DNA from: Pseudomonadota bacterium
Lineage (GTDB): Bacteria; Myxococcota_A; Polyangia; Fen-1088
Length of the DNA stretch: 28,758 nucleotides
Direction: 5' to 3'
Assembly: GCA_017881285.1 (NCBI GenBank)
Contig: JADGRD010000003.1
Coordinates: 1 to 28,758, forward strand
The position numbers were made by a program, and so were the translations under genes. Under the pieces are notes generated by a model. The model made no database searches. It worked only from the letters and a program-made list of their open reading frames with translations, and was not told the origin of the DNA. Each line of letters starts with the position of its first letter. The stretch's first letter is position 1. Below are positions 1 through 28,758 of this stretch, one piece after another.

Positions 1-1242
1 GCCTGCGGGCGCGCCCACCCAGTCGCGCATGGTCAGCGGCGTCCACACGTCGATGATGCGCGGTTCGTGGAGCGGCCCCGTGGCTTCCTCGACTTCTCGC
101 AGGGCTTGCTGCGCTCGACGCGTCTTTTCCACGCGATACTCGGGACCGCGGTGGCCGGTCGTGGTGTCGTGCCAGCGCGCCCACTCGGCGTAATTGGTCT
201 CGACGAGTACGGTGAGCCGGGTCTTGCCAGGCACGCCGGATGGTCGCAACTGACCGTACACACCCTCGAGGAGACGGCTGGGATCGCCGCGCACGCGGAA
301 GAGGTTGAAGTCCTGCGCGGGATGGTGCTTCTCGTCGAGCAAGGCCGCCACGCACAGGAGGCCACCGGTTTCCGTGAGCCGTCCGATGCCCTCGCGATAG
401 CTCGCCGGCAAGGCCTCGTGCGGGAGCAGTCCGACCATGGTCTTGGGGTGGATGGCCGCAACCACGGTGTCCGTGGCGATGCTCCGGCCCGACTGCAACC
501 GGACGCCGGAAGTGCGCCGCTGGTCCACCAGGATCCCGGCAACGGGATCCCCGACGATCAAGTCGACCCCCAGGGCAAGCGCGCGGTCCGTCAGGGCCGC
601 GGCCATCTCGACCCCGGTGCAACCGAGCTCCCAGGCCGACATGAGCAGGGAGGCCGTGGCCACCATGAGAAACGCAGCCGGGCACGCGGAGAGATTTACA
701 CCGATGAGACACCCCTGCAGGGCGAGGATATCGACGAGGCGCTTGGGCAGGTTCATCTCCGCCAGCACCTCGGCCGCGGTGCGCGTCATGGGCAGCGGCG
801 GCGGCGCTCCCCTGGCGTTCGTACGCAGACTCGCCATGGCGGCGTGGCAGATCTGCATGACGAAGCCGACGGCGTCCGGCGCGTGGGGAAAGCGCGCGGC
901 CAGCGTGGCCTCGAGCTTCTCCACCGTGCTCGGCAGGTCGAAGATCTCGTCGTCGAAGAAGAAACGATCGATGACCCCGCCGGTGCCCAGGCGGCGCAAC
1001 TTGAGCGCGGGGCGAATCTCCAGCAGGTCGAGGAAGTCGCCGAGCAGTTCGCCGGGCGCGGCCGACCCGAAATAGTGGACACCAACCGGACAGTCCACGC
1101 CTTCGCGCGTGTAGCTGCGCAGGGCCCCGCCGGGTCGCGCCTCGCCCTCGACGAGGGTGACGCGCAGACCGAGGCGCGCCAGCACGATCGCCGTCGATAG
1201 CCCGCCGAAACCGGCACCGATCACCGCCACCGCCGCGCTCAC
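1..1242 (-). CDS. Phytoene desaturase/dehydrogenase-family NAD(P)/FAD-dependent oxidoreductase, 3' end truncated by window edge (not in ORF track)
   Basis: Manual translation from GTG at 1242 (GTGA overlap with KS stop at 1239) gives MSAAVAVIGAGFGGLSTAIVLARLGLRVTLVEGEARPGGALRSYTREGVDCPVGVHYFG, a Rossmann GxGxxG motif plus a family-like GG..SY.R.G...GVHY segment. The frame stays open to the edge, ending ...IDVWTPLTMRDWVGAPAG, which resembles the TPLT motif near the C-terminus of this family. Confidence 0.88.
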   Translation of the reverse strand, partial: MSAAVAVIGAGFGGLSTAIVLARLGLRVTLVEGEARPGGALRSYTREGVDCPVGVHYFGSAAPGELLGDFLDLLEIRPALKLRRLGTGGVIDRFFFDDEIFDLPSTVEKLEATLAARFPHAPDAVGFVMQICHAAMASLRTNARGAPPPLPMTRTAAEVLAEMNLPKRLVDILALQGCLIGVNLSACPAAFLMVATASLLMSAWELGCTGVEMAAALTDRALALGVDLIVGDPVAGILVDQRRTSGVRLQSGRSIATDTVVAAIHPKTMVGLLPHEALPASYREGIGRLTETGGLLCVAALLDEKHHPAQDFNLFRVRGDPSRLLEGVYGQLRPSGVPGKTRLTVLVETNYAEWARWHDTTTGHRGPEYRVEKTRRAQQALREVEEATGPLHEPRIIDVWTPLTMRDWVGAPAG

Positions 1243-3440
1243 GCGAACACCTCGATGGCCGCCAGGCGCGGGCCGAGCTCCAGGAGGAGAAGGCGGCGGT
1301 GGGGAAGTGCGATGGGCGCGCCGGTGAAAGGAAGCATTCCCACGGCGACGGCACGGCCAGCGATGGCGGCCGCGGTCGCGCCGATGCTCGCGTGCTGGCC
1401 AAGCCGGTCGCGGTAGGCGACGATGGACGCGGACGGCAGGAGTTGGCCGAGGCGGGCGTAGGCAGGGTCCTTCGCCAAGTCATGCCCGGCCGGGATGCCG
1501 ACGACGACCGCATCATAGTCTGGCGTGACTCCGGCAAAGCGATCGACCAAGGCGACCGCGCCATCGTTGCCGCCTTCGCCGAGCCAGCGCAGGCGTACGC
1601 CGGGATCGCCGTCGTCGGGAATCAGCAGGAAAGCCGCGCCGCCATCGGAGACAAGCGGACCGCGTGCCCCCTCGGGATCGAAGAGCGGCGACAGCCGGGG
1701 TTCGAAGGCCTCGGCCGCCACGACGAGCGCGCTGCCCGCGCCAGACACGATGTGCAGGGAGCCGCACAGGAGCGCCTGGCTGAATGAGCGCTCGCCCGCG
1801 GAGGAGGTCAGGTTGGGCGCCTGGCTGCCGAGGAGCAGGGCGATTTGCCCGGTCGGCGCGTTGTGAACCGAGCCGATGAAATCCATTGGACTCGAGAACT
1901 GGTCCCCACTCTCGAAGAGCTTGCGCAAGAATTCCTGGGTCTCGGCCAAGGGGCCCCACGCCGTGCCCACGGCGATGGCCTCGGGCGGGGCGGCCCGGCC
2001 GCTCGCCGTGTGCACGGTCTGCGCGAGCGCAAGCATCAAGCGCGGCAGGCGCTTGAGCCGACGGACGAAGGCGGCGGGCGCCGCCCTGGCGAAAGCCGCG
2101 TCGGGCACCAGGCCAGCGGTGGAGTCGCGGGAGAGGAGGGCGTTCCAGGTCTCGTCAAGGCCGCCGCGCGCCGTGAGGCAAGCCGAGGCGGCGATGCGCA
2201 AGGCGGGCAGCCCCGAGGCAGGGGGAACATCCCCGGTCGTCGCGCGGAGGTCCCCTCTCCCCGCGTAGCGGGGAAAGGGATGGGGTGAGGGGCTGGACGG
2301 CGCCTTCTCGAAGATCACGCAGGCGTTGTTGCCGCCGAAACCGAAGGAGTTGGAAAGGACGGCGGAAATCGGCGCCTGGGTAGGCGCGCGCACCGGAGAG
2401 ATCTCGAGACTGGTGTCGAGTGTTTCAAGTCCGGTGTTGGCGGGCAGGAGACCGTCGCGCAGGGCGAGGATCGAGATCACCGCCTCGATGCCACCCGCGG
2501 CGGCCAGGGCGTGGCCGGTCAGTCCCTTGGTCGACGACAGCGCGGGTTGCACGTCGGCGAAGACCTGCTTCATGGCGCGCGCCTCCGCCTGGTCGTTGTC
2601 GGGCGTGCCGGTGCCGTGCAGATTCACGTAGCTGATGGCCCGTGGCTCGAGGCCCGCGTCGGCCAGGGCCCGGCGCATCGCCAGCACCGCGCCCTGGCCT
2701 TCTGGATGCGGGCTGGTAGCGTGGTAGGCGTCGCAGCTTAATCCCGTGCCGGAAAGCACGGCGAGAACCGGACGCTCGTCCGGCGCGGTTTCGAGCACCA
2801 GGAATCCCGCGCCCTCGCCGACGGTCATGCCGTCGCGATTCGCGTCGAGCGGCATGCACCCATGGGCAGCCACGAGCTGAAGCTGGCGGAAACCGTGGAA
2901 GGTCAGCCGGCTGAGGGAATCAGCGCCGCCGGAGAGGACCCGCCGGGCCAGACCCGCGCGCAAGAGGGCCGCCGCGACCGACAGCGCGACGGCCGCGCTC
3001 GAACAGGCCGTCGAGATGGTGATGACCGGCCCGCAGACGCCAAGCGTTTCCGCCAAGTGCAGCGCGACCGTGTCGAGACCATGGTAGCGGTAGGCGTCGG
3101 GCGAGGTGATGCCGGCTTCCAGCGCGCTCTCCGTCGCCGCGATGCCGCCCGTGCTGCTGCCCAGAACGATCGCATCGGGCAGCGGCCCGGTGCCCACTGC
3201 CTCGCGCGCGGCCAGCAGCGCGAGCCGGTGGGTGCGGGGCCGGCCCGCGACCTCGCCAGCCTCGAGGGCGGTAGCCTGCGCGACCGGCAACTCGCCGCTC
3301 GGGTGCTTGATGGGCCACACCGTCGGTGTCTGGAAATGCGCGACCGGATGCGCGAGAAGGTCGCGGAGCTCGCCGACATGGTTCGCTCCGGCGCATACCA
3401 CACCCATGCCGGTCACGCAGACGGGCGGCCGCGAGCTCAT
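1239..3440 (-). CDS. Beta-ketoacyl-ACP synthase fused to a C-terminal chain-length-factor-like (inactive KS) domain, 733 aa
   Basis: The N-terminal KS has STACSS (Cys), NLHGTGT (His), KGLTGHALAAAG (His) and NSFGFGGNN. The second half has KS-N-like motifs (VGTAWGPL, SPMDFIGSVHNAPTGQIA) with PNLTSSAGERSF, where Glu aligns to the catalytic Cys of PVITISTACSS. ATGA overlap with the upstream ACP. Confidence 0.9.
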   Translation of the reverse strand: MSSRPPVCVTGMGVVCAGANHVGELRDLLAHPVAHFQTPTVWPIKHPSGELPVAQATALEAGEVAGRPRTHRLALLAAREAVGTGPLPDAIVLGSSTGGIAATESALEAGITSPDAYRYHGLDTVALHLAETLGVCGPVITISTACSSAAVALSVAAALLRAGLARRVLSGGADSLSRLTFHGFRQLQLVAAHGCMPLDANRDGMTVGEGAGFLVLETAPDERPVLAVLSGTGLSCDAYHATSPHPEGQGAVLAMRRALADAGLEPRAISYVNLHGTGTPDNDQAEARAMKQVFADVQPALSSTKGLTGHALAAAGGIEAVISILALRDGLLPANTGLETLDTSLEISPVRAPTQAPISAVLSNSFGFGGNNACVIFEKAPSSPSPHPFPRYAGRGDLRATTGDVPPASGLPALRIAASACLTARGGLDETWNALLSRDSTAGLVPDAAFARAAPAAFVRRLKRLPRLMLALAQTVHTASGRAAPPEAIAVGTAWGPLAETQEFLRKLFESGDQFSSPMDFIGSVHNAPTGQIALLLGSQAPNLTSSAGERSFSQALLCGSLHIVSGAGSALVVAAEAFEPRLSPLFDPEGARGPLVSDGGAAFLLIPDDGDPGVRLRWLGEGGNDGAVALVDRFAGVTPDYDAVVVGIPAGHDLAKDPAYARLGQLLPSASIVAYRDRLGQHASIGATAAAIAGRAVAVGMLPFTGAPIALPHRRLLLLELGPRLAAIEVFA
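2251..2292. repeat. REP-like palindromic element (CCCCTCACCCC..CCCT.TCCCCGC-loop-GCGGGGAGAGGG type) inside the KS-CLF linker
   Basis: 2253-2264 ccctctccccgc pairs with 2268-2279 gcggggaaaggg (11/12) around a gta loop and is followed by tggggtgagggg. On the coding strand it reads SPSPHPFPRYAGRGD. Confidence 0.7.
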
Positions 3441-3712
3441 GCAGGCGAGGCCGGCCGGCGCTGCCGGAGGAAGGCGGCGAGCGCGTTGAGCGAGGCGAAG
3501 GCCTCGACGCCCGCGGCGCGATTGTCGATCTTCACGCCGTAGTCCCGTTCGATGAGGACGACCAGTTCGAGCGTGTCGATGGAATCGATGCCCAGCCCGG
3601 CGCCGATGAGCGGGGCGGCCGGGTCGACGGCTTCGGGCTTCAGGTCGAGGCCAAGGGTTTCGACGAGCTTGCGTGCGAGCTCGGCGACGAGGGGATCGGT
3701 TTGTCCAGTCAC
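3437..3712 (-). CDS. Acyl carrier protein (ACP 1), 91 aa
   Basis: PLIGAGLGIDSIDTLELVV contains the phosphopantetheine Ser (DS). GTG start preceded by AGGAG; the gene lies between two KS genes. Confidence 0.93.
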   Translation of the reverse strand: MTGQTDPLVAELARKLVETLGLDLKPEAVDPAAPLIGAGLGIDSIDTLELVVLIERDYGVKIDNRAAGVEAFASLNALAAFLRQRRPASPA

Positions 3713-3751: not shown

Positions 3752-5011
3752 TCACGCCAACCGGTGAAAGACCAGGCAGGTGTTGGTGCCGCCGAAGCCG
3801 AAGGCGCTCTTGAGCACGTATTCCTGATTGGCGAGCGGCCGCGTTGTGGTCACCACGTCGAGGTGGATGTCGGGATCGGGGGTCAAGTTGAGGGTGGGCA
3901 GCAACACGCCGTCGCGCATACCCTCGAGGGCGAGCATGGATTCGATGACGCTGGCCGCGCCCATGGCGTGGCCGAGCTGCGACTTGTTCGCGCTGACCGG
4001 CGGAACCCGGTCGCCGAAGACGTCGTGCAGTGCCTCGTCCTCGATCTTGTCGCCCACCTTGGTGGACGAGGCGTGCGCATTCACCGCCGCGATGCCGTCG
4101 GTCCGGACTTCCGCCGTTGCGATGGCTTCGGCGATGCAGGCTGCGATGGTCGGGCGGTGGGGCGAGACCGGGTGGTGCGCGTCCGAGGTCAAGGACCAGC
4201 CCGCGAGCTCGAAGTCGGCGGCTAGGCCGTGGGCGCGCGCGAAGTCGGCGCTCGCCATGATCACGCAGCCCGCGCCTTCGGAGATGACGAAGCCGCGGCG
4301 GTCGAGCGAGAACGGCCGGCTGGCCCTTTCCGGATGGGACCTGTCCTCGTCGGTCTTGGGCTTGAAAGCGCCGTTCATGGTCGAGAAACCCGCGACGATG
4401 GGCTCGACCAGCGGGAAATCGACGGCGCCCGCGATGACCACGTCGGCCCGGCCGGTGTCGATGAGCAGGGCGCCCATGGCCAGGGAGGTGCTGCCCGTGG
4501 CGCAGGCCGTGACCGTGGTGATGCACGGTCCGGTGGCGCCGGACAGCATCGAGATCTTTCCCGCGATCATGTTCACGCAGGAATTCGGGTTCATGTAGGG
4601 CAGGGGCAGGGTACCGGTGGCGACCAGGGCCCGGTCCGCGTCCACCACCGCGTCGAGCCCGCCGATGGCGGTGCTGAAGGTGACGGCCACGCGCGGGGCG
4701 AGCGCGGGTGTGATCTCGATGCCCGCCTTGGCCAGCGCGCGATGCACGACCAGCATGCTGTAGCGAAAGACCGGCGACTTCCAGTGCGCCATCTCACGGG
4801 GACGCAGGCAAGGTGGCAAGGGCTCGATGGCGGCCGGATCGAAATCGACCTGGCCGGCGATGCGCACCGGAAAATCAGGCCGGAGCGGAAAACGCGTCAG
4901 CGGCCCGATGCCGCTTTCGCCGGCGGTGGCGCGTTTCCACGCGGCGGCCCAATCCACGCCCAGCGAGGAAACTCCATCCCATCCCAGCAGCCGAGGTCGC
5001 GACTTGCCCAT
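3752..5011 (-). CDS. fabF: Beta-ketoacyl-ACP synthase II (FabF family), 419 aa from ATG 5011
   Basis: TVTACATGSTS (Cys), VNAHASST (His), KSQLGHAMGAA (His), SRPFSLDRRGFVISEG, SAFGFGGTN. The symbol is a family-level call only. Confidence 0.92.
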   Translation of the reverse strand: MGKSRPRLLGWDGVSSLGVDWAAAWKRATAGESGIGPLTRFPLRPDFPVRIAGQVDFDPAAIEPLPPCLRPREMAHWKSPVFRYSMLVVHRALAKAGIEITPALAPRVAVTFSTAIGGLDAVVDADRALVATGTLPLPYMNPNSCVNMIAGKISMLSGATGPCITTVTACATGSTSLAMGALLIDTGRADVVIAGAVDFPLVEPIVAGFSTMNGAFKPKTDEDRSHPERASRPFSLDRRGFVISEGAGCVIMASADFARAHGLAADFELAGWSLTSDAHHPVSPHRPTIAACIAEAIATAEVRTDGIAAVNAHASSTKVGDKIEDEALHDVFGDRVPPVSANKSQLGHAMGAASVIESMLALEGMRDGVLLPTLNLTPDPDIHLDVVTTTRPLANQEYVLKSAFGFGGTNTCLVFHRLA

Positions 5012-5024
5012 GGTCAATTCTCGG

Positions 5025-6020
5025 CTACCACGGAATGAATCGGTAGAGCTTGGCGAACATCTCGTAGACCTCGATCCAGTTCTGCAGATCGCGCGCGGTG
5101 CGGATGTGCGCTCGCTTGTTGACCATGACCCAGCTCATGTGGGCGGCGCCGTCCTTGCACGTGGCGCAGTCGCGCGTGGCGGAGGTGCAACAGCGATGCG
5201 TGGTCTTGAGATCCGCAGACCAGCGGCGGAAGCGGATGAGCCGGCGCGGCTGCGGGTTGCGCGTGTCGTGCGTCTCGGACACCGAGGGGCATTCCTGCCA
5301 GCCGAAGCGGCGGCCGAGCATGCTGCCCGTGGTGAGCACCTCGTGGTAGTAGCGCGAGGAGATGACGGTGTCGGGGTAACGGTCGAGTAGATCGTCCAAC
5401 TCGTCGCGCACGTCGGCGAGTTGCGCGGGCGACCAGGAGAAGCCATCGGCGCCCTCGTCGTTGGAGAGGAGCTGGAAGTGGACCTTGACGCCGATGTCAC
5501 GAATGCGGCGGACCATGGTCTCCACCCGGCCCAGTTGCTGCGAGGTGATGGTGTAGAGGTAGTAGGTGTTGGGGTCGCCGGCGTAGTTTTTCGACGAGAC
5601 CGCGAAGGCGTCCTTTCCACGCAGCGACTTCTCGGTGCCGGCGTCGCCCCACAGCGAGATGCCTACCATCATCTGCGGGAAGCGGTCGCGCGGCACCTTG
5701 ATGAGTCCGTTGGTGGCGCAGAAGGTGGGCAGGCGCTTGAAGAAGGCCTCGACGCGGTCGGGGTGCAGCGTCGGCTCGCCGCCGATGAGGATGGGCAGGT
5801 TCGCCCCGCGCGCTTTCTCGGCATCGATGAAGGTTTCCCACGTGGCAACGTCGTTGGCCTCGCCCGTCAGGTGCTCATTCGAGGAGAAGAAGAAGCAGCC
5901 CTTGCAGCGCAGGTTGCACGTGTTGGTCACGTCGTAGATCGAGCTGCGGATGTTCAGGTTGCAGATCTTCTGGTAGCGGTGGTGCCAGGCGTCGTCGAGC
6001 AGCGACCGGACGGTGATCAT
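5025..6020 (-). CDS. Radical SAM protein (non-B12), paralogue A, 331 aa; start corrected to ATG 6020
   Basis: TNTCNLRCKGCFFF (CxxxCxxC) and LIGGEPTL, with C-terminal ECPS...RCCTSATRDCATC extra cysteines. ATG 6020 forms an ATGA overlap with the stop of the upstream gene (6017). Confidence 0.9.
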   Translation of the reverse strand: MITVRSLLDDAWHHRYQKICNLNIRSSIYDVTNTCNLRCKGCFFFSSNEHLTGEANDVATWETFIDAEKARGANLPILIGGEPTLHPDRVEAFFKRLPTFCATNGLIKVPRDRFPQMMVGISLWGDAGTEKSLRGKDAFAVSSKNYAGDPNTYYLYTITSQQLGRVETMVRRIRDIGVKVHFQLLSNDEGADGFSWSPAQLADVRDELDDLLDRYPDTVISSRYYHEVLTTGSMLGRRFGWQECPSVSETHDTRNPQPRRLIRFRRWSADLKTTHRCCTSATRDCATCKDGAAHMSWVMVNKRAHIRTARDLQNWIEVYEMFAKLYRFIPW

Positions 6021-7123
6021 CGGGCGGCTCCGGTCTGCCGGGCCAGCGCGGGCGCGATAGGGACGGCGCACAGATTGGGTTCCTTGGCGTAGCCTTGCAC
6101 CCATACCGCGAGGTAGGTATCGACGTAGTCGAGCCAGGCTCGGAACTGGTCCGGGCTGCCGATGTGGCGGTTCATGCGCGCGGTGACGATGGCGCTACCC
6201 GCCGCATAGTGGCGACAGTCGGCGCAGTCGGTGTCGGGCACGCAGCACGCGGCCTCGCGAATCCACGTCAGGTCCGAGCGGTACTGGCGGAAGGAGCGCC
6301 CGAGGCCGAACTGCCCCTGGTTTTGCCGCGGGTACGGGCAGGAATAGAGATCGTGCAGCGAGAGGGTATCGGTGTGCGCGGCGGCGCTGTAGGGCGAGAA
6401 GAGCACCTGCTCGGGATAGTCGGCGAGCAGCGACAGCATGGCCTGGCGGGTCTCGGCGAGCGAGGTGGGCGTGTGGCTGAGCGAGCCCTGGTAGCCGACC
6501 GTGGCTGAGAACATGTTGAAGGTGACCTTGCAGCCGTGGCGGGCCAGATTCTCGACGACCCCGCGCGCCTCGGCGATGTTCTCGCGCGTGAAGGTGTAGA
6601 CGAAAACCGCGCGCGGATCGCCGGCGTAGATCTCGATCTGGCGCTCCAGCATGCGCTTGGCGCGGCGGACGCGCTCGGAGGTCGCGTCGTTGCCCCATAC
6701 CGAGATGTGGATGCGGTAGCCGACCTCCGACGAAATGTGAATCAAGCCATTCGAGGCGATGGCGCCCAGCGGGATCTCGGCGGAGCAGGCTTCGAGCAGA
6801 TCGGGCACGAGCGCGGGTTCGGCGCCGGCCAGCACGACAAAGGTGATGCCGCGCGCCTTCTCGGCCTGGAAGAGCTTGCGCCAGGCCTCGGGGTCGAGGT
6901 TGTCCTGCGCGTTCTGTTTGTCCCCCTCGTAGTAGTAGCAGCCGTCGCAGCGCACGTTGCACCGGCGGGTCATGTCGTAGGTCGACTCGCGCAGGAAGAA
7001 GTAGCGGCGAACCTTCGCGAAACGCGCGGCGATGTCCGGCAGCTTGACGATGTCCGCGAAGGTGCCGGACGTGGCCGCGGGCGCCGTATTCGCTGGGGCC
7101 GCGGCTAGAACGTCGAGGTTCAT
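6017..7123 (-). CDS. Radical SAM protein (non-B12), paralogue B, about 368 aa (alternative start 7138)
   Basis: TRRCNVRCDGCYYY (CxxxCxxC) and VLAGAEPAL, with C-terminal SCPY...ACCVPDTDCADC extra cysteines. Shares motifs with 5025-6020 (AEKARG, ISxWG, YAGDP, DL..., WxxV). Confidence 0.9.
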   Translation of the reverse strand: MNLDVLAAAPANTAPAATSGTFADIVKLPDIAARFAKVRRYFFLRESTYDMTRRCNVRCDGCYYYEGDKQNAQDNLDPEAWRKLFQAEKARGITFVVLAGAEPALVPDLLEACSAEIPLGAIASNGLIHISSEVGYRIHISVWGNDATSERVRRAKRMLERQIEIYAGDPRAVFVYTFTRENIAEARGVVENLARHGCKVTFNMFSATVGYQGSLSHTPTSLAETRQAMLSLLADYPEQVLFSPYSAAAHTDTLSLHDLYSCPYPRQNQGQFGLGRSFRQYRSDLTWIREAACCVPDTDCADCRHYAAGSAIVTARMNRHIGSPDQFRAWLDYVDTYLAVWVQGYAKEPNLCAVPIAPALARQTGAAR

Positions 7124-7151
7124 GACCGTGTCTGGCAACCCCCGTGCGCCG

Positions 7152-10942: not shown

Positions 10943-10947
10943 GCAGC

Positions 10948-21429: not shown

Positions 21430-21461
21430 CGAGGACACAGAGGGGGAAGAGAGCACGGAGG
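21430..21461. repeat. Left arm of a 32-bp imperfect inverted repeat (partner 22202-22233)
   Basis: cgaggacacagagggggaagagagcacggagg matches the reverse complement of 22202-22233 at 29/32 positions. Each arm is itself a doublet of GAGGGCACAGAGG-like units. Confidence 0.8.
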
Positions 21462-21478
21462 AAGCGAATAGGGCCATC

Positions 21479-22157
21479 TCAATTCCCGGATTGCCCTCGG
21501 GGGCGAGGGCTTGGCGGGCGCGTGAGGGCGTCACAGCGCGCTTGCCAGGCACCGGGGGCGTTCATGGCGCGGTCGTATTCTGCGATGGCTTGCTTGGTCT
21601 CCGGCAGGTCCGAGCTGGCAACCCACAAACAAAACGCCCTGGGGAATTCCATGCCGCCGAGAGGATCGTGGTGGTCGCCGACGGGAGCGGCCAGGAAGAG
21701 CTTGGTCAGAGGCTTGATCGCCGGCAGATGGCCAAGCTCGATGAGCGCCATGGCCGCCTGCAGGCGTGCCTCGTGCTCCTTCTCCGCCACCAGCATCCAC
21801 CAACCGGGCTCCCGATGCCAGGGGCTCCAACCGGGGGTGGGCTTCGGCTCGAGCAAGGATACGAGCGCCTGCAGGAGTGCAGGCGTATGCAGCTGTTTCA
21901 CGGTGGCGAAGGCCGCCTCCCGCGTGCGGCGTGAGCGATGGAGGAGCAGAGTGGACAGCAGCGGTTCCCATCGCGGGATCGCTTGCAGCGTGGCCGTAGA
22001 CTTCGCGTCCAGCCTCGTCTCGCAGGCGGAGCACAGCTTCTCGCATGCCCCCGTCCTGATCCACGCCTGGCACAGCCATTGGCTGCGGGCTCCGCTTGCA
22101 CCCCAGCGCGGCAACCGTCAACGCCACAATCGTCAGCTTCTCGATGGTAGGAGCCAT
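21479..22157 (-). pseudogene. Probably frameshifted lipoprotein with HEAT/PBS-like repeats (split between ORFs 21531-22157 and 21479-22114)
   Basis: Frame A has AGGGG, then ATG 22157 and a lipoprotein signal MAPTIEKLTIVALTVAALG-C, after which codon use looks non-coding. Frame B has no good start but carries GC3-rich codons, a Cys motif CQAWIRTGACEKLCSAC and HEAT-like helices (LLLHRSRRTREAAFATV; EARLQAAMALIELG). The frames switch near 22075-22095. Confidence 0.55.
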
Positions 22158-22201
22158 GCGCCCCTAAACCATACTCGTGTTCTCCTCCCGAGTGGAGCGC
22201 C

Positions 22202-22233
22202 CCTCTGTGCCCTCTTCCCCCTCTGTGCCCTCG
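22202..22233. repeat. Right arm of the 32-bp imperfect inverted repeat (partner 21430-21461)
   Basis: cctctgtgccctcttccccctctgtgccctcg, with an internal direct repeat cctctgtgccctc present twice. Confidence 0.8.
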
Positions 22234-22247: not shown

Positions 22248-22898
22248 TCATTCGTGATCCACCAAGCTCATGTCGAGCGTGTAGCCGCCGGCGCCGGGCA
22301 CGATGAGACGCACCTCGGGAAAGAAGCCGCCGGCGGGCGTGCCCAAGAGCTCGACCTGCCGGGTGAGGTGCAGGTTGCGATAGGTGCGGATGCGCGCCGG
22401 CCCGCCGCTGGCCAGTTCCACGTCGGTGACATCGCCGCCCCCCGGCGACCAGCGGCAGACGGTTTCGCCCGTGGCGTAGCTACCGATGGCGGTGGGGGCG
22501 CCCGCGGGTGACAGGAAGACCTTGCCCACGTCGGACATGAGTGCCGCGGCGAAATCGGGGCGGTCGAAGGGCGGCACCGCGCGCCGGGCGACTAGACGGA
22601 CGCGGCCGTCGCCGCCGACTTTCTCAACGCCGTCGAAAAGGCTGATGCCCTCGGCAGAGAGCAGGATCGCGTGCAGTCCCTCGGCATCGGCCGCGGTGAC
22701 GCCGATGAGCGCGCCATTGTGCCCGAAGGGCAGGGTGGCGAAGATGGTGTGCGTGGCTCGCCAGGGCTGCGGCGGGAAGGCCTGGTGGCAACGGGCGAGG
22801 GTGGCCGCTCGGGTTTCATCCGGTAGCGGCGCCAGTGGCGGCAGGTGGGCGCAGGCCGCGCAGAACAACACCAGAAAGGCCGCGGCGCGCATGATCAT
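22248..22898 (-). CDS. Lipoprotein, possibly DUF3261/ApeN-like, 216 aa
   Basis: Signal peptide and lipobox MIMRAAAFLVLFCAA-C. It follows a LolA-like gene with an ATGA overlap, as in APE-type clusters. The family call rests on position and general pattern only. Confidence 0.7.
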   Translation of the reverse strand: MIMRAAAFLVLFCAACAHLPPLAPLPDETRAATLARCHQAFPPQPWRATHTIFATLPFGHNGALIGVTAADAEGLHAILLSAEGISLFDGVEKVGGDGRVRLVARRAVPPFDRPDFAAALMSDVGKVFLSPAGAPTAIGSYATGETVCRWSPGGGDVTDVELASGGPARIRTYRNLHLTRQVELLGTPAGGFFPEVRLIVPGAGGYTLDMSLVDHE

Positions 22899-23524
22899 CG
22901 CGGCGGCTCGAAGCGCTCGTCCGGGATGGCCTGGCCGTAGCGCGGATTCTCAAAGGCGATGTGCGTGACGCCTTCGCCCTCCTCGAAGATGTCGATGGCA
23001 TCCACCGTGCCGGGGCGCTCGCCGAAAAGGATGGCGATTCGCGAGATGACCTTGCCGAGCGAGGGGTCCACGGGCAAGAGGTCGACGTGGGCGGGCTGGC
23101 CCTTGTCGGCCGGCCGCAGCTCGGGGCGGAAGGTCTTGCTCGCCGTGAAGTTGCCGTCGAGCCACAGGCCAATCTCGCCGAGCACGATCTTCATGGCTTC
23201 CAGCTTGGCGCTCGCATCCGGCACCCAGGCCCCGCCGTGCTTGATGAGGCGGCGGACGCTGCCCCCGCGCACCACCAGCAGGGTTTCGAGCGGGCTCTGG
23301 TATTCCCAGCGCAGATCGTTCGGCCGCCGGTAGGCCATCACCCCACGCGAAACCAGCGGCTTGCGCAGGATCTTGAGCGTGCGCGTCTGCACGAACGACG
23401 TCTCGATGGTCTTCACCGTGGCGGCGGCCTGGCGGACGCCGTTCCAGTCCTGATGCCAGGCCGGCGGCGCCGCGCTCTCCGCGCCAGCCGCAAGGAATCC
23501 GGCAATCGCCAGCAGCCAGTGCAC
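22895..23524 (-). CDS. LolA-like outer-membrane lipoprotein/lipid carrier, 209 aa; start corrected to GTG 23524
   Basis: Signal-like N-terminus, then TSFVQTRTLKILRKPLVSRG...RRPNDLRWEYQSP, the typical LolA-fold FxQ...G...P..lRWeY pattern. Confidence 0.85.
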   Translation of the reverse strand: MHWLLAIAGFLAAGAESAAPPAWHQDWNGVRQAAATVKTIETSFVQTRTLKILRKPLVSRGVMAYRRPNDLRWEYQSPLETLLVVRGGSVRRLIKHGGAWVPDASAKLEAMKIVLGEIGLWLDGNFTASKTFRPELRPADKGQPAHVDLLPVDPSLGKVISRIAILFGERPGTVDAIDIFEEGEGVTHIAFENPRYGQAIPDERFEPPR

Positions 23525-23526: not shown

Positions 23527-24267
23527 CTACACCATCCCGCCGTTGACGGAGATAACTTGCCCCGTGATGTACGAGGCGTCGTCGGAGCACAGGAACCGTA
23601 CCACCCGCGCGACTTCCTCCGGTTTTCCGTAGCGACCCATGGGGATCATCTTCTTCAGCATGTCGAGCGGCAGGTCCTTGGTCATGTCGGTGTCGATGAT
23701 CCCGGGCGCCACCACGTTCACGCGGATGCCGATGCGGGCGACTTCCGAGGCTAGGGCGCGCGTGGCGCCCATGAGGCCGGCCTTGGCCGCGGCGTAGTTG
23801 GCCTGGCCGCGATTGCCGATCAGGCCGGACACCGATGAGATACTGACCACGCTGCCCGTCTTGTTCGGGATCATCTTCTGGATGACTGGCTTGGTGACGT
23901 TGAAGAAGCCGCCCAGGGAGGTCTCCGTGACCTTGTGCCAGTCCGCGCTCGGCATCATGGCAAAGAGCCCATCGGCCACGATGCCGGCGTTGTTGACTAG
24001 CACGGCGACGCGCTCGTGCCGCGCGAAGAGATCCGTCAGGGCCGCCTTGACCGCGGCCTCGTCGGCGACGTCGAAGGGGCAAAGAGTCCCGGTTCCGCCA
24101 CGTTCGTCGATGAGCGCGAGGGTCTGCCGGGCGGCTTCCTCGTTACTCTTGTAGTTCACCGCGACGTGGAGGCCGGTGGCGGCCAGTTCCACGGCGATGG
24201 CGCGACCGATGCCGCGGCTGGCGCCGGTGACGATGGCCAGAGGGCGGGAGGTTGGCGGCTGGGTCAT
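23527..24267 (-). CDS. fabG: 3-oxoacyl-ACP reductase (SDR), 246 aa; start corrected to ATG 24267
   Basis: VTGASRGIG, LVNNAGI, NYAAAKAG (YxxxK), VAPGIIDTDM, YITGQVISVNGG. ATGA overlap with the upstream DH. Confidence 0.95.
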   Translation of the reverse strand: MTQPPTSRPLAIVTGASRGIGRAIAVELAATGLHVAVNYKSNEEAARQTLALIDERGGTGTLCPFDVADEAAVKAALTDLFARHERVAVLVNNAGIVADGLFAMMPSADWHKVTETSLGGFFNVTKPVIQKMIPNKTGSVVSISSVSGLIGNRGQANYAAAKAGLMGATRALASEVARIGIRVNVVAPGIIDTDMTKDLPLDMLKKMIPMGRYGKPEEVARVVRFLCSDDASYITGQVISVNGGMV

Positions 24268-24725
24268 GGTTGTTCTCCGGGCAGGGGAACGCGGTCGGGG
24301 CGGAAGGCCTGGATCGCTCCGGTCAGCCATAGCATGCCGGAGTCATCCTTGACCTCGCCTTCGAAGGCCTGATAGTTCGTGGCGCCGTGGGAAGTGCGCA
24401 CCGAGCAGAGCAGCCGCGTTCCCACGGGCACGCTGGGCCGGGCAGGAGTGGCGGTGTGTATGCCAACCAGGAGGCCGCCGATGCGGGCATCCTTCTCATG
24501 CCGCTCTTTCCAGCCTTGCAGGACCGCGGCGGATTGTGCGATGAGCTCGACGAGCACCAGGGCGCGCACGTGGCCGCCCTCCGCCGTGGGCCACGCCTCG
24601 CGGACGACCGCGCCGATCTCTATGGAAGTCTCGTCGACCCGGAGGATGTCCTCGACCAGGCGCATGGGCAAGCGATGGGGAATCAGCCTCTCGATGTCGC
24701 TTGGGGAAGCGGTGGGTTCGCTCAT
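24264..24725 (-). CDS. Hotdog-fold 3-hydroxyacyl-ACP dehydratase subunit (ApeP/FabZ-like), 153 aa; true start ATG 24725
   Basis: LIPHRLPMRLVE and ELIAQSAA, GLLVGI. ATGA overlaps at both ends. The upstream part of track ORF 24264-25853 is a shadow frame. Confidence 0.85.
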   Translation of the reverse strand: MSEPTASPSDIERLIPHRLPMRLVEDILRVDETSIEIGAVVREAWPTAEGGHVRALVLVELIAQSAAVLQGWKERHEKDARIGGLLVGIHTATPARPSVPVGTRLLCSVRTSHGATNYQAFEGEVKDDSGMLWLTGAIQAFRPDRVPLPGEQP

Positions 24726-25561
24726 TCTCGCTCCTTGGCGGCAGTGATCCAGGCAGGCGGCGGGGCGCCAGCGGCAAGCGGCGACATGGCCAGGCCGATG
24801 ACCGCGTCGCAGACCGCGCCTTCTTCGTCGATGAACCAGAGGTTGCAGAGAAGACTCCGTGGTTCGACGCGTGTCGGGACGACGATGCAGCGGCGCTCGC
24901 CAGCCGGGGTCGGCTTCGTCAACACCCGGGCCAGGAAGCCGGTCGGGTACGCCACGATCCCGGCGTACCGTTGTCCCCACACGCAGGCCAGGTGCATGGC
25001 CGCGTCGAACAGGTAGGGGCAGCTCGCCAGCGGGGGGGGGTGTCGCGGTGGCTCGGGGGAACGCACGCGGGCGACGCCGCCGCTCGGCCCCAGGCGAACG
25101 GTCCCGCGCAGATTGCAGTAGCGCGGCCCGAAGGGAATCAGCTCGCGATAGACGCGCTCGGCGGGCAGCTCGAAGGCGCAGGCGAGATCCGCCGGCGGAC
25201 GCGGTGGCGGTGCGATCGGGGCCCCCAGCGTAACTCCGGCATGCACACGCGAGCGGCGCATGTCCCCCACCAGAGCGATCCGCGAGGTCAAGGTCGCACG
25301 CAGGGCGCCGTCGCTTGCTTCCACGGCAATCTCGAAGGTGCAGCGATCGATTTCGTCGGCCGGCAGAAAGCGAGGGAAGCTCACGTCGGTCATGGCCAGG
25401 GGCAGGGGCGGTCGACCGGCCCAACCCTCTTGCCCGGCCACGGTTCGGACCAAGAGCTCGAGCAGCTCGACGGCGGGCACGGTGGCTTTGCCGCCGATGA
25501 CGTGGTCCGCCAGGTCCGGTAACTCGGGCAAGGCGACGGACCAGGCGGCCAGCACGGGCAT
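24722..25561 (-). CDS. Stand-alone type I PKS-like dehydratase (double hotdog), 279 aa; start ATG 25561
   Basis: LADHVIGGKATVPA matches HxxxGxxxxP; YLFDAAMHL matches the DxxxH/Q catalytic motif; FGPRY. TGATG overlap with the upstream thioesterase. Confidence 0.8.
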   Translation of the reverse strand: MPVLAAWSVALPELPDLADHVIGGKATVPAVELLELLVRTVAGQEGWAGRPPLPLAMTDVSFPRFLPADEIDRCTFEIAVEASDGALRATLTSRIALVGDMRRSRVHAGVTLGAPIAPPPRPPADLACAFELPAERVYRELIPFGPRYCNLRGTVRLGPSGGVARVRSPEPPRHPPPLASCPYLFDAAMHLACVWGQRYAGIVAYPTGFLARVLTKPTPAGERRCIVVPTRVEPRSLLCNLWFIDEEGAVCDAVIGLAMSPLAAGAPPPAWITAAKERE

Positions 25562-26040
25562 CACTGGGGAAAGCGCTGGAAGATCCCGACGGTGATCGGA
25601 TCGACCGCGACCGGCCGGCCCTTGCGGTTGGTCGCGCAGTGGCGCGTGAACCCGCGGCACAGCACGCTCCCGTCTTCCGCGTTCGTGATGATGTAGTCGA
25701 AGTCGACCCGCACGGCCGCCAGCTCGCGGAAGCGCGTATGGACGAAGATGGGCGCGTCGTAGTCGATGGGCCGGAAGAAATCGAGGCCGAGCTGGAAGAT
25801 GGGGTAGACGTGGCCATCCGCCTCGACCTGCCGGAGCGGGAAGCCCGCGTCACGCAGCAGGGTCGCGCGCCCGAGCTCGAAGAAGCGGAAGTAGTTGCCG
25901 TGGTAGACGACGCCCGTGCGATCCGTGTCGGCGAAGAGGATGCGATGGGAGACGCGGTGCCAGACCTGCCCGGAAACCTGGTCGCGCACGTAGCGCTGGT
26001 CGGATTCGTAAGGGACGGGCTTGAATTCAGTCGCGCGCAT
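25561..26040 (-). CDS. Acyl-CoA/ACP thioesterase (YbgC/FadM hotdog family), 159 aa
   Basis: RILFADTDRTGVVYHGNYFRFFELGR; FFRPIDYD. Confidence 0.92.
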   Translation of the reverse strand: MRATEFKPVPYESDQRYVRDQVSGQVWHRVSHRILFADTDRTGVVYHGNYFRFFELGRATLLRDAGFPLRQVEADGHVYPIFQLGLDFFRPIDYDAPIFVHTRFRELAAVRVDFDYIITNAEDGSVLCRGFTRHCATNRKGRPVAVDPITVGIFQRFPQ

Positions 26041-27300
26041 CTAGATTCCCCGGAAGATCACGCAGCAGTTCGTGCCCCCGAACCCAAAGGAGTTCGACAG
26101 TGCGAATTCGTGGGGGTGCGGCCGGCTGGTGGCGACGAAGTCGGCGCCCGCGAGCTCGGGATCGGGAAGGTAGTTGAGCGTGGGCAAGACGGTCTGCCGT
26201 TCGAGAGCCATGATCGCGAGCACAGCCTCGACCGCGGCCGCGGCGCCGAGCGAATGGCCGACCTGGCTCTTGTTGGCGGTGATGGGTACGTGGGACAGGC
26301 GGTCGCCGAATATCTCGCGCAGGCAACCCACCTCGACGGCGTCTCCGGAGGGCGTCGAGGTGCCGTGCGCATTCACGCTGCCAATGGCGGCCGCGTCGAT
26401 CTCCGCGTCGGCGAGTGCCTCGCGGATGGCGCGTACGATGGTCGGCTGATGGGGGCGGGTGAAGTGATGCGCGTCCGAGGTCCAGCCGATGCCGGCGACT
26501 TCGGCCGTCGGCGCCAGGCCGTGCGCGGCGACCGCATCCTCGGCGGCCAGGACCACGGCGGCCGCGCCCTCGGCGAGCACGAAGCCGCGCCGGTCCACGC
26601 TGAACGGGCGTGAGGCTTGCCCCGGATCGGCGACGGCCCGGTCCGTGCTGCGCAGCTTGAAGCTGGCGTTCATGTTGGCGAAGCCGAGCACGATCTCGGG
26701 GATGAGCGGCATCTCCACGCCGCCCACCACGGCGAAGTCCACGTCTCCGTCGCGCACCATGCGCGCGCCGAGCGCGATGGCGTGGTTGCCCGAGGCGCAG
26801 GCGCCCTGGGGCGAGAAGATGGGGCCCGTGAAGCCGAGCACGGCGCCGGCCTTGCCCGCGGGCACGTTGGCGCAGATGTTGGGCAGCAGAAAGGGGCTGA
26901 CGCCGTTGGCGCCGATGTTGCCGTAGCGCACGAAGGCCTCGCGCAGGCTATCCGAGCCATTGATGGCCGAGCCGATGAGACAGGCGGTGCGCGGCCCGGT
27001 GCCGTCGTTCATCGGCAGCTTCGCGTCGGCGAGCGCGTCCTGGCAGATGGCCATGGTCTCGATCACGTAGGCGGCGTTCCAGTTGTGCCGCTCCTTCGGC
27101 GTGTCGAAGGCATAGCGGTCGCCCTCGCGTCCCGGCATCTCGCCGACGATCATGGTGGTGCCCACGTTGCAGCGCGAGAGAGGGCGCAGGCCGGACTGGT
27201 TGGCGGCGGCGCGCTCCCAGGTCGCCTCCGCGGTGGCGCCCAGCGCGGTCCTGGCTGAGCGGCCGATGACGAAAACGCGGCGGTTCTTGGGGGCTCTCAT
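26041..27300 (-). CDS. fabF: Beta-ketoacyl-ACP synthase II (FabF family), 419 aa; start corrected to ATG 27300
   Basis: SPQGACASGNHA (Cys), VNAHGTST (His), KSQVGHSLGAA (His), SRPFSVDRRGFVLAEG, NSFGFGGTN. Family-level symbol. Confidence 0.93.
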   Translation of the reverse strand: MRAPKNRRVFVIGRSARTALGATAEATWERAAANQSGLRPLSRCNVGTTMIVGEMPGREGDRYAFDTPKERHNWNAAYVIETMAICQDALADAKLPMNDGTGPRTACLIGSAINGSDSLREAFVRYGNIGANGVSPFLLPNICANVPAGKAGAVLGFTGPIFSPQGACASGNHAIALGARMVRDGDVDFAVVGGVEMPLIPEIVLGFANMNASFKLRSTDRAVADPGQASRPFSVDRRGFVLAEGAAAVVLAAEDAVAAHGLAPTAEVAGIGWTSDAHHFTRPHQPTIVRAIREALADAEIDAAAIGSVNAHGTSTPSGDAVEVGCLREIFGDRLSHVPITANKSQVGHSLGAAAAVEAVLAIMALERQTVLPTLNYLPDPELAGADFVATSRPHPHEFALSNSFGFGGTNCCVIFRGI

Positions 27301-27395
27301 GCGAGGGGTAGGTGGTGTTCTATGGCATGCCGCTGGGCGATTCCGCAAGGCTTCGTTGCGCGAGGCGCAGCGGGCGCCAGCGGCGTAACCTTCGA

Positions 27396-27452: not shown

Positions 27453-27713
27453 ATGGATCACAGCACGGCCTATAGACTCATCGTCGAATATCTTTCGCAA
27501 CGTTTCGGCGTCCCCCTCGACAAGATCAAGCCCGAGTCCAAGATGTTCGACGACCTCGGGCTCGACAGCATCGATGCTCTCGACATGCTGGCCCTGCTCG
27601 ACAAGCAGTACCGGGTCAAGGTCAACGAGGAGCAGGCCCGGCGCATCCGCACCGTCGAGGATGCCGTGCAGTACGTGCTGGCGAACCTGCCCGCGAACGC
27701 GTCGCCGCCCTGA
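27453..27713 (+). CDS. Acyl carrier protein (ACP 3), 86 aa
   Basis: MFDDLGLDSIDALDML contains the DS motif; RIRTVEDAV. Confidence 0.94.
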   Translation: MDHSTAYRLIVEYLSQRFGVPLDKIKPESKMFDDLGLDSIDALDMLALLDKQYRVKVNEEQARRIRTVEDAVQYVLANLPANASPP

Positions 27714-28758
27714 TGGTCCGCCTCCGGCCGACGCTTGAATTTCGCCGGGGCGGCGAGCTCGTGACCCACGTGGTCGCGTCGCCGGACGCGACCTGGTTCC
27801 AGGGGCATTTTCCCAACGCGCCGCTTCTGCCCGGGGTGGCCATGATGGCCTTGGTCGAGGACTCGCTGCTCCACTTCTGGTCGGACGCGGACCAGCCCGC
27901 GGTCGAGGTGGCATCCTACCGGCGGGTTCGCTTTCGCCAGCGGGTGGAGCCGGGGGCGAACCTGCGCGCGCGCGTACGCCGGATGGACGGGGAGCGCTTT
28001 CGGTTTTCCGTCGAACTGGGCGGAGCGGCGGCGTGCACCGGCGAGTGCAGCGTGAAGTCGCGGGACGGGCAGGAGACTCCAGCCCGGCCGAGCCCGGCCG
28101 AGGGTGCGTGGTCGGGCATCGATCGTTCCGGTCGTGCCCGATTCACCTCGGACGGCGCCACACTGGGCGAGGTGGCGCGGCTGGCGGCCCGATTGTGCGC
28201 GCTCGCCGCGGGTGGTCCGCCAGCCACGGTTTGCGTGGCGTCCGAGGATCGGGTCGAGGTCGCGGCGGCGGTGCTGGCCGCCCTGGCCGGGGGGATCGAG
28301 GCGATCTTCCCGGCCGCGCTGACTGCCGAGGCCGTGGCGGCGACGGGGCCGGCCAGGCCGTTTTCGCACTGGCTGGGGCCGGCCGAGTGGTCGGAGAAAC
28401 TGGCGGGACTGGCGGCGGTTCGCGTTTTGGCCGATGCGTCCTTACGCGCGGGCCCTGCCTTGGATCTGGCGGACCCGGATGTCGCTCGCATATTCCTGCA
28501 AACCGGCGGCACCACTGGGCAGCCGCAGGTTTGGCCCAAGACGGCGCGCAATCTGCTCGACGAGGTGGCGGCGCATGTGCGCGGCCTGCGCGTCGAAGCG
28601 GACGACCACATCCTGGCTACCGTGCCACCACACCATATCTATGGCCTCCTGTTCTCGCTGCTGCTTCCCCTGTGCTCGGGCGCCACGGTCGAACGGATCT
28701 CGCCTTTTTTTCCGCAGGAGATCGCCGAGCGTGTCGCGCGGACGCAGGCGACCATCCT
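27713..28758 (+). CDS. FabZ/ApeI-like dehydratase fused N-terminally to an AMP-binding acyl-CoA/ACP synthetase, 3' truncated (not in ORF track)
   Basis: Manual translation from ATG 27713 (TGATG overlap with ACP3) is open to the window end. It contains WFQGHFPNAPLLPGV and VRFRQRVEPG (hotdog DH), then IFLQTGGTTGQPQVWPK (P-loop/A3-like) and ATVPPHHIYGLLF (ApeH-like adenylation domain). Confidence 0.87.
   Translation, partial: MVRLRPTLEFRRGGELVTHVVASPDATWFQGHFPNAPLLPGVAMMALVEDSLLHFWSDADQPAVEVASYRRVRFRQRVEPGANLRARVRRMDGERFRFSVELGGAAACTGECSVKSRDGQETPARPSPAEGAWSGIDRSGRARFTSDGATLGEVARLAARLCALAAGGPPATVCVASEDRVEVAAAVLAALAGGIEAIFPAALTAEAVAATGPARPFSHWLGPAEWSEKLAGLAAVRVLADASLRAGPALDLADPDVARIFLQTGGTTGQPQVWPKTARNLLDEVAAHVRGLRVEADDHILATVPPHHIYGLLFSLLLPLCSGATVERISPFFPQEIAERVARTQATI

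Follow-up and report, generated by a model that had tools for sequence, protein, structure and literature searches.

A peat Myxococcales gene cluster that joins an aryl-polyene-type lipid set to radical SAM enzymes

Described relatives and gene content of the window

Aryl polyene (APE) clusters, described from Xenorhabdus doucetiae, Escherichia coli CFT073 and Acinetobacter baumannii (ApeA-R), make a glycerol-phosphate-N-acetylgalactosamine (GalNAc) lipid bearing two chains that the cluster itself makes, an aryl polyene and a conjugated C26:5 acid; the two chains are each built on their own acyl carrier protein (ACP) and attached by ApeD and ApeJ, and the lipid is exported by ApeM, ApeL and the LolB-like ApeN (bioRxiv 10.1101/2020.12.19.423268). 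Here we analyze contig JADGRD010000003.1 (28,758 nucleotides, all of which is referred to below as the window), one entire contig of a 4.5-Mb metagenome-assembled genome (MAG; 789 contigs, 74% complete) of an uncultured peat Myxococcales bacterium. The contig is a real, nearly complete cluster joining the full APE lipid set to radical S-adenosylmethionine (rSAM) enzymes. The initial annotation, which read the locus as an APE-like set joined to a "ladderane-like" set of FabF, B12-rSAM and phytoene-desaturase-like genes for a radical-tailored, exported membrane lipid, is supported in this core reading.

A second group of relatives is known from anammox bacteria. Type II fatty acid synthesis (FASII) clusters of Kuenenia hold rSAMs, phytoene-dehydrogenase-like genes and FabF paralogues without the active-site Cys; they show "striking" synteny with Desulfotalea psychrophila, including a CoA ligase, a glycosyltransferase and a new membrane protein, similar clusters occur in Geobacter and Pelobacter, and D. 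psychrophila makes no ladderanes (PMC2649909). Surveyed "ladderane" clusters are expressed in Desulfobacterota, Myxococcota and other phyla, with function unknown (PMC9902471). The link between the anammox cluster and ladderanes still lacks experimental support, anammox bacteria have no genetic system, and the rSAM enzyme was not obtained by heterologous expression (PMC10139942); a 2026 review describes ladderane synthesis as unresolved (PMC13459092). Given these reports, calling the pathway undescribed, as was initially done, overstated its novelty: the window is a new Myxococcota member of a catalogued, uncharacterized family and not a new kind of system. What it newly provides is this Myxococcota member, the cluster edges, a two-arm anatomy and co-occurrence numbers.

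Compared with APE clusters, the window has the full defining core, namely ketosynthases (KS; ApeO, ApeR), a chain-length factor (CLF; ApeC), ACPs, dehydratases (DH; ApeI, ApeP), a 3-ketoacyl reductase (KR) and an RND transporter. The likeness extends to the methyltransferase, AMP-ligase, thioesterase (TE), glycosyltransferase, acyltransferases, and LolA-like and LolB-like proteins. In contrast to APE clusters, the window adds rSAMs (four here, five in the full cluster), an ammonia-lyase with a 4-methylideneimidazole-5-one (MIO) group, the CrtI-like flavoenzyme and the Dak2-DegV fusion. It also has a second arm, of FabF type, for which an ACP, a TE and a PS-DH are separately encoded. Several functions are fused (KS-CLF, MMPL-methyltransferase, DH-ligase), no ApeG-type membrane protein was seen in the window, and the hosts of the rSAM-equipped cluster family are anaerobes. 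Flexirubin clusters of Bacteroidota (FlxA tyrosine ammonia-lyase, FlxB reductase, LolA2) likewise use an ammonia-lyase for the aryl starter, and the KR, LolA and lyase of the window score best or near best to flexirubin equivalogs. However, all these scores are below the equivalog cut-offs, no dialkylresorcinol genes (DarA/DarB) were found, and characterized flexirubin clusters have no rSAMs.

By published description, the FASII clusters of Kuenenia stuttgartiensis and D. psychrophila have the same unusual combination of gene types as the window: extra FabF paralogues (one without the active-site Cys), several rSAMs and an amine-oxidase-type flavoenzyme, together with a CoA-ligase-like enzyme, a glycosyltransferase and a membrane protein. 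The window itself differs in lacking a TIGR04072 (rSAM_ladder_B12) gene and in adding the rSAMa/rSAMb arm, a DUF4070-type B12-rSAM and the lyase. A KS, an inactive KS paralogue and a phytoene-dehydrogenase-like flavoenzyme, gene types described for the anammox candidate cluster (Kuste3603-3608 type), are all present in the window.

Because the GC content of the window is high (~69%), genes were chosen by third-position GC (GC3 frame plot) together with family matches, giving the following features (coordinates, strand, identity and supporting evidence).

1..1242, minus: FAD amine-oxidase/CrtI (phytoene-desaturase)-like flavoenzyme (Pfam Amino_oxidase, NAD_binding_8; C-terminus cut at the window edge)
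1239..3440, minus: KS-CLF single-chain fusion, 733 aa, ApeO + ApeC equivalent (Pfam ketoacyl-synt N/C and Ketoacyl-synt_2)
3437..3712, minus: ACP1 (PP-binding, DSI serine; PRK09184-type, 67.9 bits against a cut-off of 70)
3752..5017, minus: KS2, FabF-type elongating ketosynthase of the rSAM arm (intact Cys-His-His)
5025..6020, minus: rSAMa, 331 aa (CxxxCxxC and five further invariant Cys)
6017..7138, minus: rSAMb, paralogue of rSAMa (30% identity; GAEP in place of GGEP; ATGA-coupled to rSAMa)
7152..7421, minus: ACP2, carrier protein of the rSAM arm (PP-binding, DSM serine)
7622..9217, plus: B12rSAM1, B12-binding radical SAM enzyme with C-terminal DUF4070, accessory (Pfam)
9320..10942, plus: MIO aromatic amino-acid ammonia-lyase with a Phe-His dyad (Lyase_aromatic, 492 bits; ASG motif)
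10945..11379, plus: second 4HBT-type thioesterase, start approximate (66% identity to the gene of related locus L015; Pfam 4HBT_2/4HBT)
11369..13114, plus: Dak2-FakA middle-DegV fusion, fatty-acid-kinase-like, start approximate (Pfam, NCBIfam)
13277..13897, minus: lineage-specific open reading frame (ORF), probably outside the pathway (GC3 pattern fits coding)
14130..15365, plus: KS3, ApeR-type ketosynthase (PDB 4EWG, 7F27; PRK09116, 444.6 bits)
15362..16159, plus: GT2 glycosyltransferase (Pfam Glycos_transf_2)
16149..19241, plus: MMPL/RND transporter + class I SAM methyltransferase fusion, ApeM + ApeB equivalents (Pfam MMPL, Methyltransf_25/23)
19190..20110, plus: LpxL/HtrB-type lipid acyltransferase (Pfam Lip_A_acyltrans; NCBIfam)
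20113..21390, minus: B12rSAM2, 425-aa B12-binding radical SAM enzyme, core member (family matches, motif)
21430..22233, no strand: inserted cassette with a HEAT-like ORF at 21479-22114, minus (32-nt inverted repeats)
22248..22898, minus: LolB/LolA-fold putative lipoprotein, 216 aa, ApeN equivalent (signal peptide ending in Cys; model fold)
22895..23524, minus: LolA-like periplasmic carrier, ApeL equivalent (Pfam LolA; LolA2_flexi below cut-off)
23527..24330, minus: KR, 3-ketoacyl-ACP reductase, FabG/FlxB-like, true start probably near 24240 (adh_short_C2, 213 bits)
24264..24725, minus: FabZ/ApeP-like dehydratase (PDB 6qsr_B, E 3e-10)
24722..25564, minus: PKS-type double-hotdog dehydratase, PS-DH (Pfam PS-DH, PKS_DH_N)
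25561..26040, minus: 4HBT/YbgC-type thioesterase (family matches)
26041..27348, minus: KS4, FabF-type ketosynthase (intact triad; FabF models)
27453..27713, plus: ACP3 (PP-binding, DSI serine)
27713..28756, plus: ApeI-like dehydratase + AMP-dependent ligase fusion, ApeI + ApeH equivalents, cut at the window edge (Pfam ApeI-like, FabA, AMP-binding)

Every item of the gene inventory first drawn up from the sequence was found again (four KS plus a CLF, three ACPs, KR, three DHs, two TEs, lyase, ligase, GT2, acyltransferase, MMPL-methyltransferase, LolA, lipoprotein, two B12-rSAMs, two other rSAMs, flavoenzyme and Fak fusion), the second TE (~10945-11379) being detected only through its 66%-identical orthologue in L015 (L, G and C labels are ours for related loci, genomes and contigs). 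The count of four rSAMs is right for the window, whereas the full cluster in the genus has five. The nearest relatives of the host are Myxococcales MAGs from fen and peat, and DNA nearly identical to the window is found in permafrost, peat, soil and wetland metagenomes.

Two enzyme arms and their conservation across genomes

The polyene arm is, by sequence relationship, of the aryl-polyene type, with ApeO/ApeC and ApeR as its closest solved relatives. The catalytic Cys-His-His is intact in four KS; in the KS-CLF fusion it lies in the N-half, and the C-half is CLF-like, since Glu stands at the Cys position and both His are missing. The top PDB match of this fusion is 7f28_B (E 3e-64), from the A. 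baumannii ApeO-ApeC complex, while KS3 matches the ApeR structures 4EWG and 7F27 at 365 and 360 bits, compared to 247 bits for the best FabF; stacking of the aryl group has been reported for ApeR (PMC8358021). The phosphopantetheine serine (DSx) is kept in all three ACPs, and ACP1 has 9ls6_A as its top PDB match.

The remaining polyene and export proteins are related to known families to different degrees. The small dehydratase has a single strong PDB match, 6qsr_B, which we take to be the ApeP chain of X. doucetiae ApeI:ApeP; at E ≤ 0.1 only 6qsr_B and 4h4g are found, neither bearing an anammox or amxFabZ name. Its Pfam ApeP-like score is 14.4 bits (cut-off 27), and its orthologue in Desulforhopalus carries ApeP-like. 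The DH half of the ligase fusion passes the ApeI-like cut-off (30.5 against 28.5 bits), the best model for the ligase half is 4-coumarate-CoA ligase with a weak score, and the open frame holding the DH-ligase match spans ~580-775 aa in relatives. The KR exceeds the cut-offs of FabG models and reaches 319.2 bits for FlxB_rubin_SDR (cut-off 340). The best NCBIfam match of GT2, polyprenyl-phospho-GalNAc synthase, is far under its cut-off, as is the flavoenzyme for all NCBIfam carotenoid-enzyme models; the LolA-like protein scores 93.3 bits for LolA2_flexi (cut-off 125), and the MMPL-methyltransferase fusion has ~10 hydrophobic segments. The 216-aa protein at 22248-22898 was assigned to no sequence family in profile searches, Pfam DUF3261 included. 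Its model (pLDDT 89) has only LolB, LolA or LolA-like proteins among its top 15 PDB structure matches; this putative lipoprotein of LolB/LolA fold and the LolA-like protein make up an export pair.

The ammonia-lyase has 2o78 and 2o6y as its top PDB matches, with ~3 bits in favor of 2o78; both are presumably Rhodobacter sphaeroides tyrosine ammonia-lyase (TAL). If 2o78 is the His89Phe mutant, as we assume, the Phe of the window lyase would stand at the switch position. The dyad is Phe-His, compared to Phe-Leu in cyanobacterial phenylalanine ammonia-lyase (PAL) and Ser-His in tyrosine aminomutase in the same alignment, and assignment as a canonical TAL, PAL or histidine ammonia-lyase was rejected because none fits this dyad. 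Phe-His is invariant within the genus and cluster lyases of other phyla have Ser-His. NCBIfam FlxA gives 276.2 bits against a cut-off of 700.

The second arm is fatty-acid-like and comprises ACP2, rSAMb, rSAMa, KS2, KS4, TE and PS-DH. All four rSAMs of the window keep CxxxCxxC. The Pfam scores of rSAMa and B12rSAM2 are slightly under the gathering cut-offs, and their motifs and large homologue families are clear. rSAMa starts at 6020 (331 aa) rather than 6104 and is ATGA-coupled to rSAMb; the two are 30%-identical paralogues with five further invariant Cys in common in their alignment, which fits one auxiliary Fe-S cluster. The rSAMa family has at least 1,896 proteins; each of the best 120 has 72% identity or more, a length of 331-333 aa and no more than a generic name. 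The best folds for rSAMa are TigE, viperin, TYW1, PylB and BtrN; an HpnH/DUF3463 identity, hinted at by a protein atlas, was dropped since the fold search did not support it. KS2 has ordinary FabF proteins as top PDB matches, with ApeR lower, and always adjoins rSAMa in the other genomes examined. rSAMb stands beside rSAMa in nearly all related loci that cover this stretch (missing in L039 and L040), the order ACP2-rSAMb-rSAMa-KS2 is constant in nearly all related loci, and the KS4-TE-PSDH block recurs in other phyla. In a locus of the same genus (L014, PNBO01000197.1), rSAMb is split into overlapping frames at 6316-6861 and 6828-7376, which suggests a frameshift or an assembly error.

Among the B12-binding enzymes, B12rSAM1 has QCMT (9CCB), an sp3 C-methyltransferase, as its nearest solved relative, at a weak E of 1.6e-7. 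B12rSAM1 and B12rSAM2 score 51.8 and 45.5 bits for TIGR04072, compared to a cut-off of 360. B12rSAM2 has more than 6000 homologues, the top 120 at least 72% identical. A Spirochaetota MAG (DAIUKG010000004.1, L066:10001-16092) has four B12rSAM1-like genes in a row (identities to window B12rSAM1 of 56%, 47%, 24% and 32%), which resembles a local expansion of this B12-rSAM type.

Jaw5, of jawsamycin synthesis, is a HemN-like cyclopropanase that works with a type I iterative polyketide synthase (PKS). Of the rSAMs in a 2026 review, it alone modifies a ketoacyl chain during chain growth, and it resembles the window enzymes in being an rSAM that modifies a chain from a KS system; however, rSAMa and rSAMb show no specific similarity to it.

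Searching all window proteins against 88 loci by tblastn, we found that the cluster genes recur, differently ordered, in Desulfobacterota (Syntrophales among them), in Spirochaetota and in other Myxococcales and Myxococcota loci. Since it recurs across phyla, this gene grouping is not due to chance. A co-occurrence sample of 201 genomes, from the phylum of one Syntrophaceae MAG, has rSAMa in 14, as a single copy each. B12rSAM2 is present in all 14 of these and in 13 of the 187 others, and 12 of the 14 have both genes on the same contig at a distance of 4-12 kb; all 8 full-length fused KS-CLF genes of the sample belong to rSAMa-positive genomes, and B12rSAM1 occurs in 5/14 plus one other genome. 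Fisher tests give p values of 1e-14 to 4e-6, which overstate the association because related genomes are not independent. Thus, B12rSAM2 is a core member, whereas B12rSAM1 is accessory and often unlinked.

The rSAMs are the best-conserved cluster proteins across phyla. Median cross-phylum identity is 72% for rSAMa (70-74%), 65% for rSAMb and 66% for B12rSAM1, and B12rSAM2 is 70-74% identical where orthologous; it is lower elsewhere (KR 60%, KS-CLF 42%, flavoenzyme 35%). Flavoenzyme orthologues adjoin KS-CLF in other phyla at 34-36% identity. The concern, raised at the outset, that the rSAM genes could lack co-conservation with the fatty acid synthase/PKS genes is answered by these data: the two sets are co-conserved across phyla.

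A compact version of the cluster, with 13 gene types in common with the window, is present in Desulforhopalus sp. 52FAK. One strand encodes a methyltransferase-like gene, the flavoenzyme, a TIGR04072 enzyme (386 bits), the KS-CLF fusion and an ACP, and the other strand an ApeP-like DH, KR, LolA, an ORF 30% identical to the window LolB-fold protein, B12rSAM2, AMP-ligase, the Dak2-DegV fusion, GT2 and the LpxL-type acyltransferase. Desulforhopalus belongs to the same taxonomic order as Desulfotalea. TIGR04072 enzymes adjoin KS-CLF in most rSAMa-positive genomes, and mutual exclusion of TIGR04072 and B12rSAM1 was rejected, as G044, G096 and G123 have both. One genome of the sampled phylum, G141, has two cluster subtypes: C3 carries rSAMa with a B12rSAM2 of 71% identity, and C87 a high-scoring TIGR04072 gene (636 bits) with a B12rSAM2 of 61% identity; its C5 has a B12rSAM1-like stretch with three in-frame stops. 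Two Myxococcales fen MAG loci (L023 and L037) are arranged differently: B12rSAM1 and ACP2 come immediately after B12rSAM2, and the lyase, Dak2-DegV, KS3, GT2, MMPL and acyltransferase genes are missing from between them.

Proposed pathway and alternative readings

Taken jointly, it is fairly probable that the cluster encodes a pathway for an outer-membrane lipid of the APE lipid (APEL) type, whose oxygen-independent synthesis includes tailoring by rSAM enzymes, and that ~26 of its roughly 29 genes lie within the contig. Going by the homologous APE pathway of Xenorhabdus and E. coli, the MIO lyase would supply an arylacrylate, which the ApeI-DH/AMP-ligase fusion would load on an ACP. KS-CLF, the ApeR-type KS3, the KR and the ApeI/ApeP-like dehydratases would extend this starter to a polyene; GT2, the LpxL-type acyltransferase and a PlsC-type acyltransferase beyond the window would then carry out assembly on a glycerol-phosphate-sugar backbone, and the MMPL-methyltransferase fusion, LolA and the LolB-like lipoprotein would deliver the lipid to the outer membrane, all as in APE synthesis. 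Two features hint at a glycerol-phosphate-GalNAc lipid as product: the sub-threshold best match of GT2, which is to a GalNAc-phosphate transferase family, and the acyltransferases. Gene order suggests that the FabF-type arm may build a second acyl chain, with rSAMa and rSAMb modifying it while it is bound to ACP2, and that after thioesterase release the Dak2-DegV fusion may re-activate the chain as acyl-phosphate. More speculatively, B12rSAM2, B12rSAM1 and an off-window TIGR04072 enzyme could introduce C-methyl groups or C-C bonds, and the CrtI-like flavoenzyme could desaturate or isomerize the chain. As to product chemistry (cyclized, cross-linked or methylated), we purely infer it.

A more specific form of this pathway has ACP2-rSAMb-rSAMa-KS2 carry out radical C-C bond formation between rounds of FabF-type elongation, closing rings or cross-linking an enoyl or alkyl chain that is still carrier-bound, as in the "type c" stepwise proposal for ladderanes. 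We consider it very unlikely. If it were true, many non-anammox anaerobes would make ketoacyl lipids of a carbocyclic or cross-linked kind that has so far escaped detection, and this cluster family would have given rise to the anammox pathway as a specialized offshoot.

Several observations weigh against the APEL-type reading. For rSAMa, sequence search gave no PDB relative, and its model (pTM 0.80) matches only generic rSAM folds, at TM ≤ 0.45. All flexirubin and APE equivalog models score window proteins below their cut-offs, so that, by curated standards, these proteins count as relatives and not as orthologues. Among the B12rSAM1 orthologues (50-71% identity; Spirochaetota, Syntrophaceae and further groups), about half lie more than 10 kb from any cluster gene. 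No conserved neighbor exists for such solitary copies either, and the other cluster blocks lie elsewhere in those genomes: all five tested carry ACP2-rSAMb-rSAMa-KS2, KS4-TE-PSDH and B12rSAM2-LolB-like-LolA-KR-DH-ACP1-KS-CLF at other sites. Contigs of four soil metatranscriptome libraries touch most genes from 3.4 to 23.4 kb at 93-99% identity; this counts in favor of the reading and is compatible with transcription, but is no proof of it, as DNA carry-over is uncontrolled. The literature searched holds no cluster with a known product that corresponds to the window, in line with the initial annotation, and reports no product for any non-anammox "ladderane-type" cluster member; lipid extracts of D. 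psychrophila had only polyunsaturated hydrocarbons, not tied to the cluster (PMC2649909).

The window could instead hold two neighboring pathways, an APE/TIGR04072-type lipid cluster and an independent operon (ACP2-rSAMb-rSAMa-KS2 with KS4-TE-PSDH) that makes a radical-modified phospholipid fatty acid. The rSAM block does move as a unit, standing on another contig or several kb away in G044, G121 and G041, the B12rSAM2/TIGR04072 core occurs without it in 13 genomes, both KS2 and KS4 belong to the ordinary FabF type, and a thioesterase is part of the block. However, rSAMa was never found without B12rSAM2 in the sampled genomes (14 of 14), mostly at the close spacing given above, and the block lacks a KR, acyltransferase and export genes of its own and in the window lies inside the cluster, between ACP1/KS-CLF and B12rSAM1. 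We regard two pathways as unlikely. It appears quite unlikely, too, that the product is not aryl-primed and is a modified (conjugated, methyl-branched or other) long-chain fatty acid phospholipid, with the lyase as a lineage-specific add-on. Two facts that also count against the APEL-type pathway would suit it: cluster lyases are only 33-34% identical between phyla and differ in their dyads, and the compact Desulforhopalus cluster has no lyase, so that an aryl starter is maybe not universal and the starter unit, judging from these sequences, may differ between lineages. The Dak2-DegV fusion and PlsC-type acyltransferase likewise point to phospholipid assembly, and characterized APE clusters also make a conjugated non-aryl fatty acid, C26:5. 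Against this stand the presence of the lyase within the cluster in at least two phyla, the weak best match of the ligase half to 4-coumarate-CoA ligase, and the conservation of the ApeR-type KS3 with its reported aryl stacking.

Ladderane (concatenated cyclobutane) synthesis, as proposed for the homologous anammox clusters, is the reading that we hold to be highly improbable. The gene types in common with the anammox candidates are ACP, B12-rSAMs, an enzyme resembling phytoene desaturase, and a KS accompanied by an inactive one (PMC2649909, PMC10139942), and a TIGR04072 "rSAM_ladder_B12" gene adjoins the flavoenzyme gene in same-genus relatives. Yet 38 of the 201 non-anammox genomes in the sample (19%) have a protein that passes the TIGR04072 cut-off, so that this family is not ladderane-specific, D. 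psychrophila has a syntenic cluster without making ladderanes, the window dehydratase matches 6qsr_B and, at E ≤ 0.1, no amxFabZ chain, and the anammox cluster itself has no experimental ladderane link.

The APEL-type pathway matters beyond this host, since the cluster family occurs in 7-19% of the sampled phylum genomes and in a named strain, Desulforhopalus sp. 52FAK. Because the family is present in non-anammox hosts, more tractable organisms might reveal how its enzymes act. Such knowledge would identify an outer-membrane lipid made by anaerobes of peat, sediment and permafrost, and the leading candidate genes for ladderane synthesis would be either strengthened or eliminated.

Cluster edges and inserted sequences

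The locus extends past both ends of the window, as initially proposed and as is seen in contigs of the same genus. No TIGR04072 member was found in the 74%-complete host genome, and four same-genus genomes have one over the cut-off (366-378 bits in G005, G006 and G009; that of G011, at 390 bits, is alone on its 3.3-kb contig). In the first three, the order is PlsC-type acyltransferase, TIGR04072, flavoenzyme, KS-CLF, ACP1, KS2, rSAMa, rSAMb and ACP2, with unrelated M16 peptidases, a Ser/Thr kinase and UvrD beyond the acyltransferase. Since the window is cut inside the flavoenzyme gene and TIGR04072 lies directly beyond this gene in relatives, a fifth rSAM (TIGR04072) and the PlsC-type acyltransferase very probably stand just past the left end. 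At the right end, relatives have the full DH-ligase, one small ORF of 120-127 aa and then unrelated genes. A few kb past this end, two same-genus loci (L107:18153-19754 and L108:15525-17312) encode a 530-600-aa alpha/beta-hydrolase with a weak thioesterase match.

Within the window, no known RNAs, riboswitches included, were found. The sole long gap of the cluster, at 13.1-14.1 kb between the Dak2-DegV fusion and KS3, holds the 206-aa ORF at 13277-13897, which has coding-like GC3 and neither a family match nor a homologue in any related locus; profile searches assigned no family to it or to the small ORFs at 13.1-13.9 kb. The HEAT-like ORF (21479-22114, minus) is flanked by 32-nt inverted repeats that are complementary at 29 of 32 positions, forming a cassette (21430-22233) that contains no transposase and is not part of the pathway; none of the related loci has its ORF. 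In RNA library X16, a contig runs from 21414 straight to 22272 through 33 different letters, and since it skips this stretch, some close relative is without the cassette.

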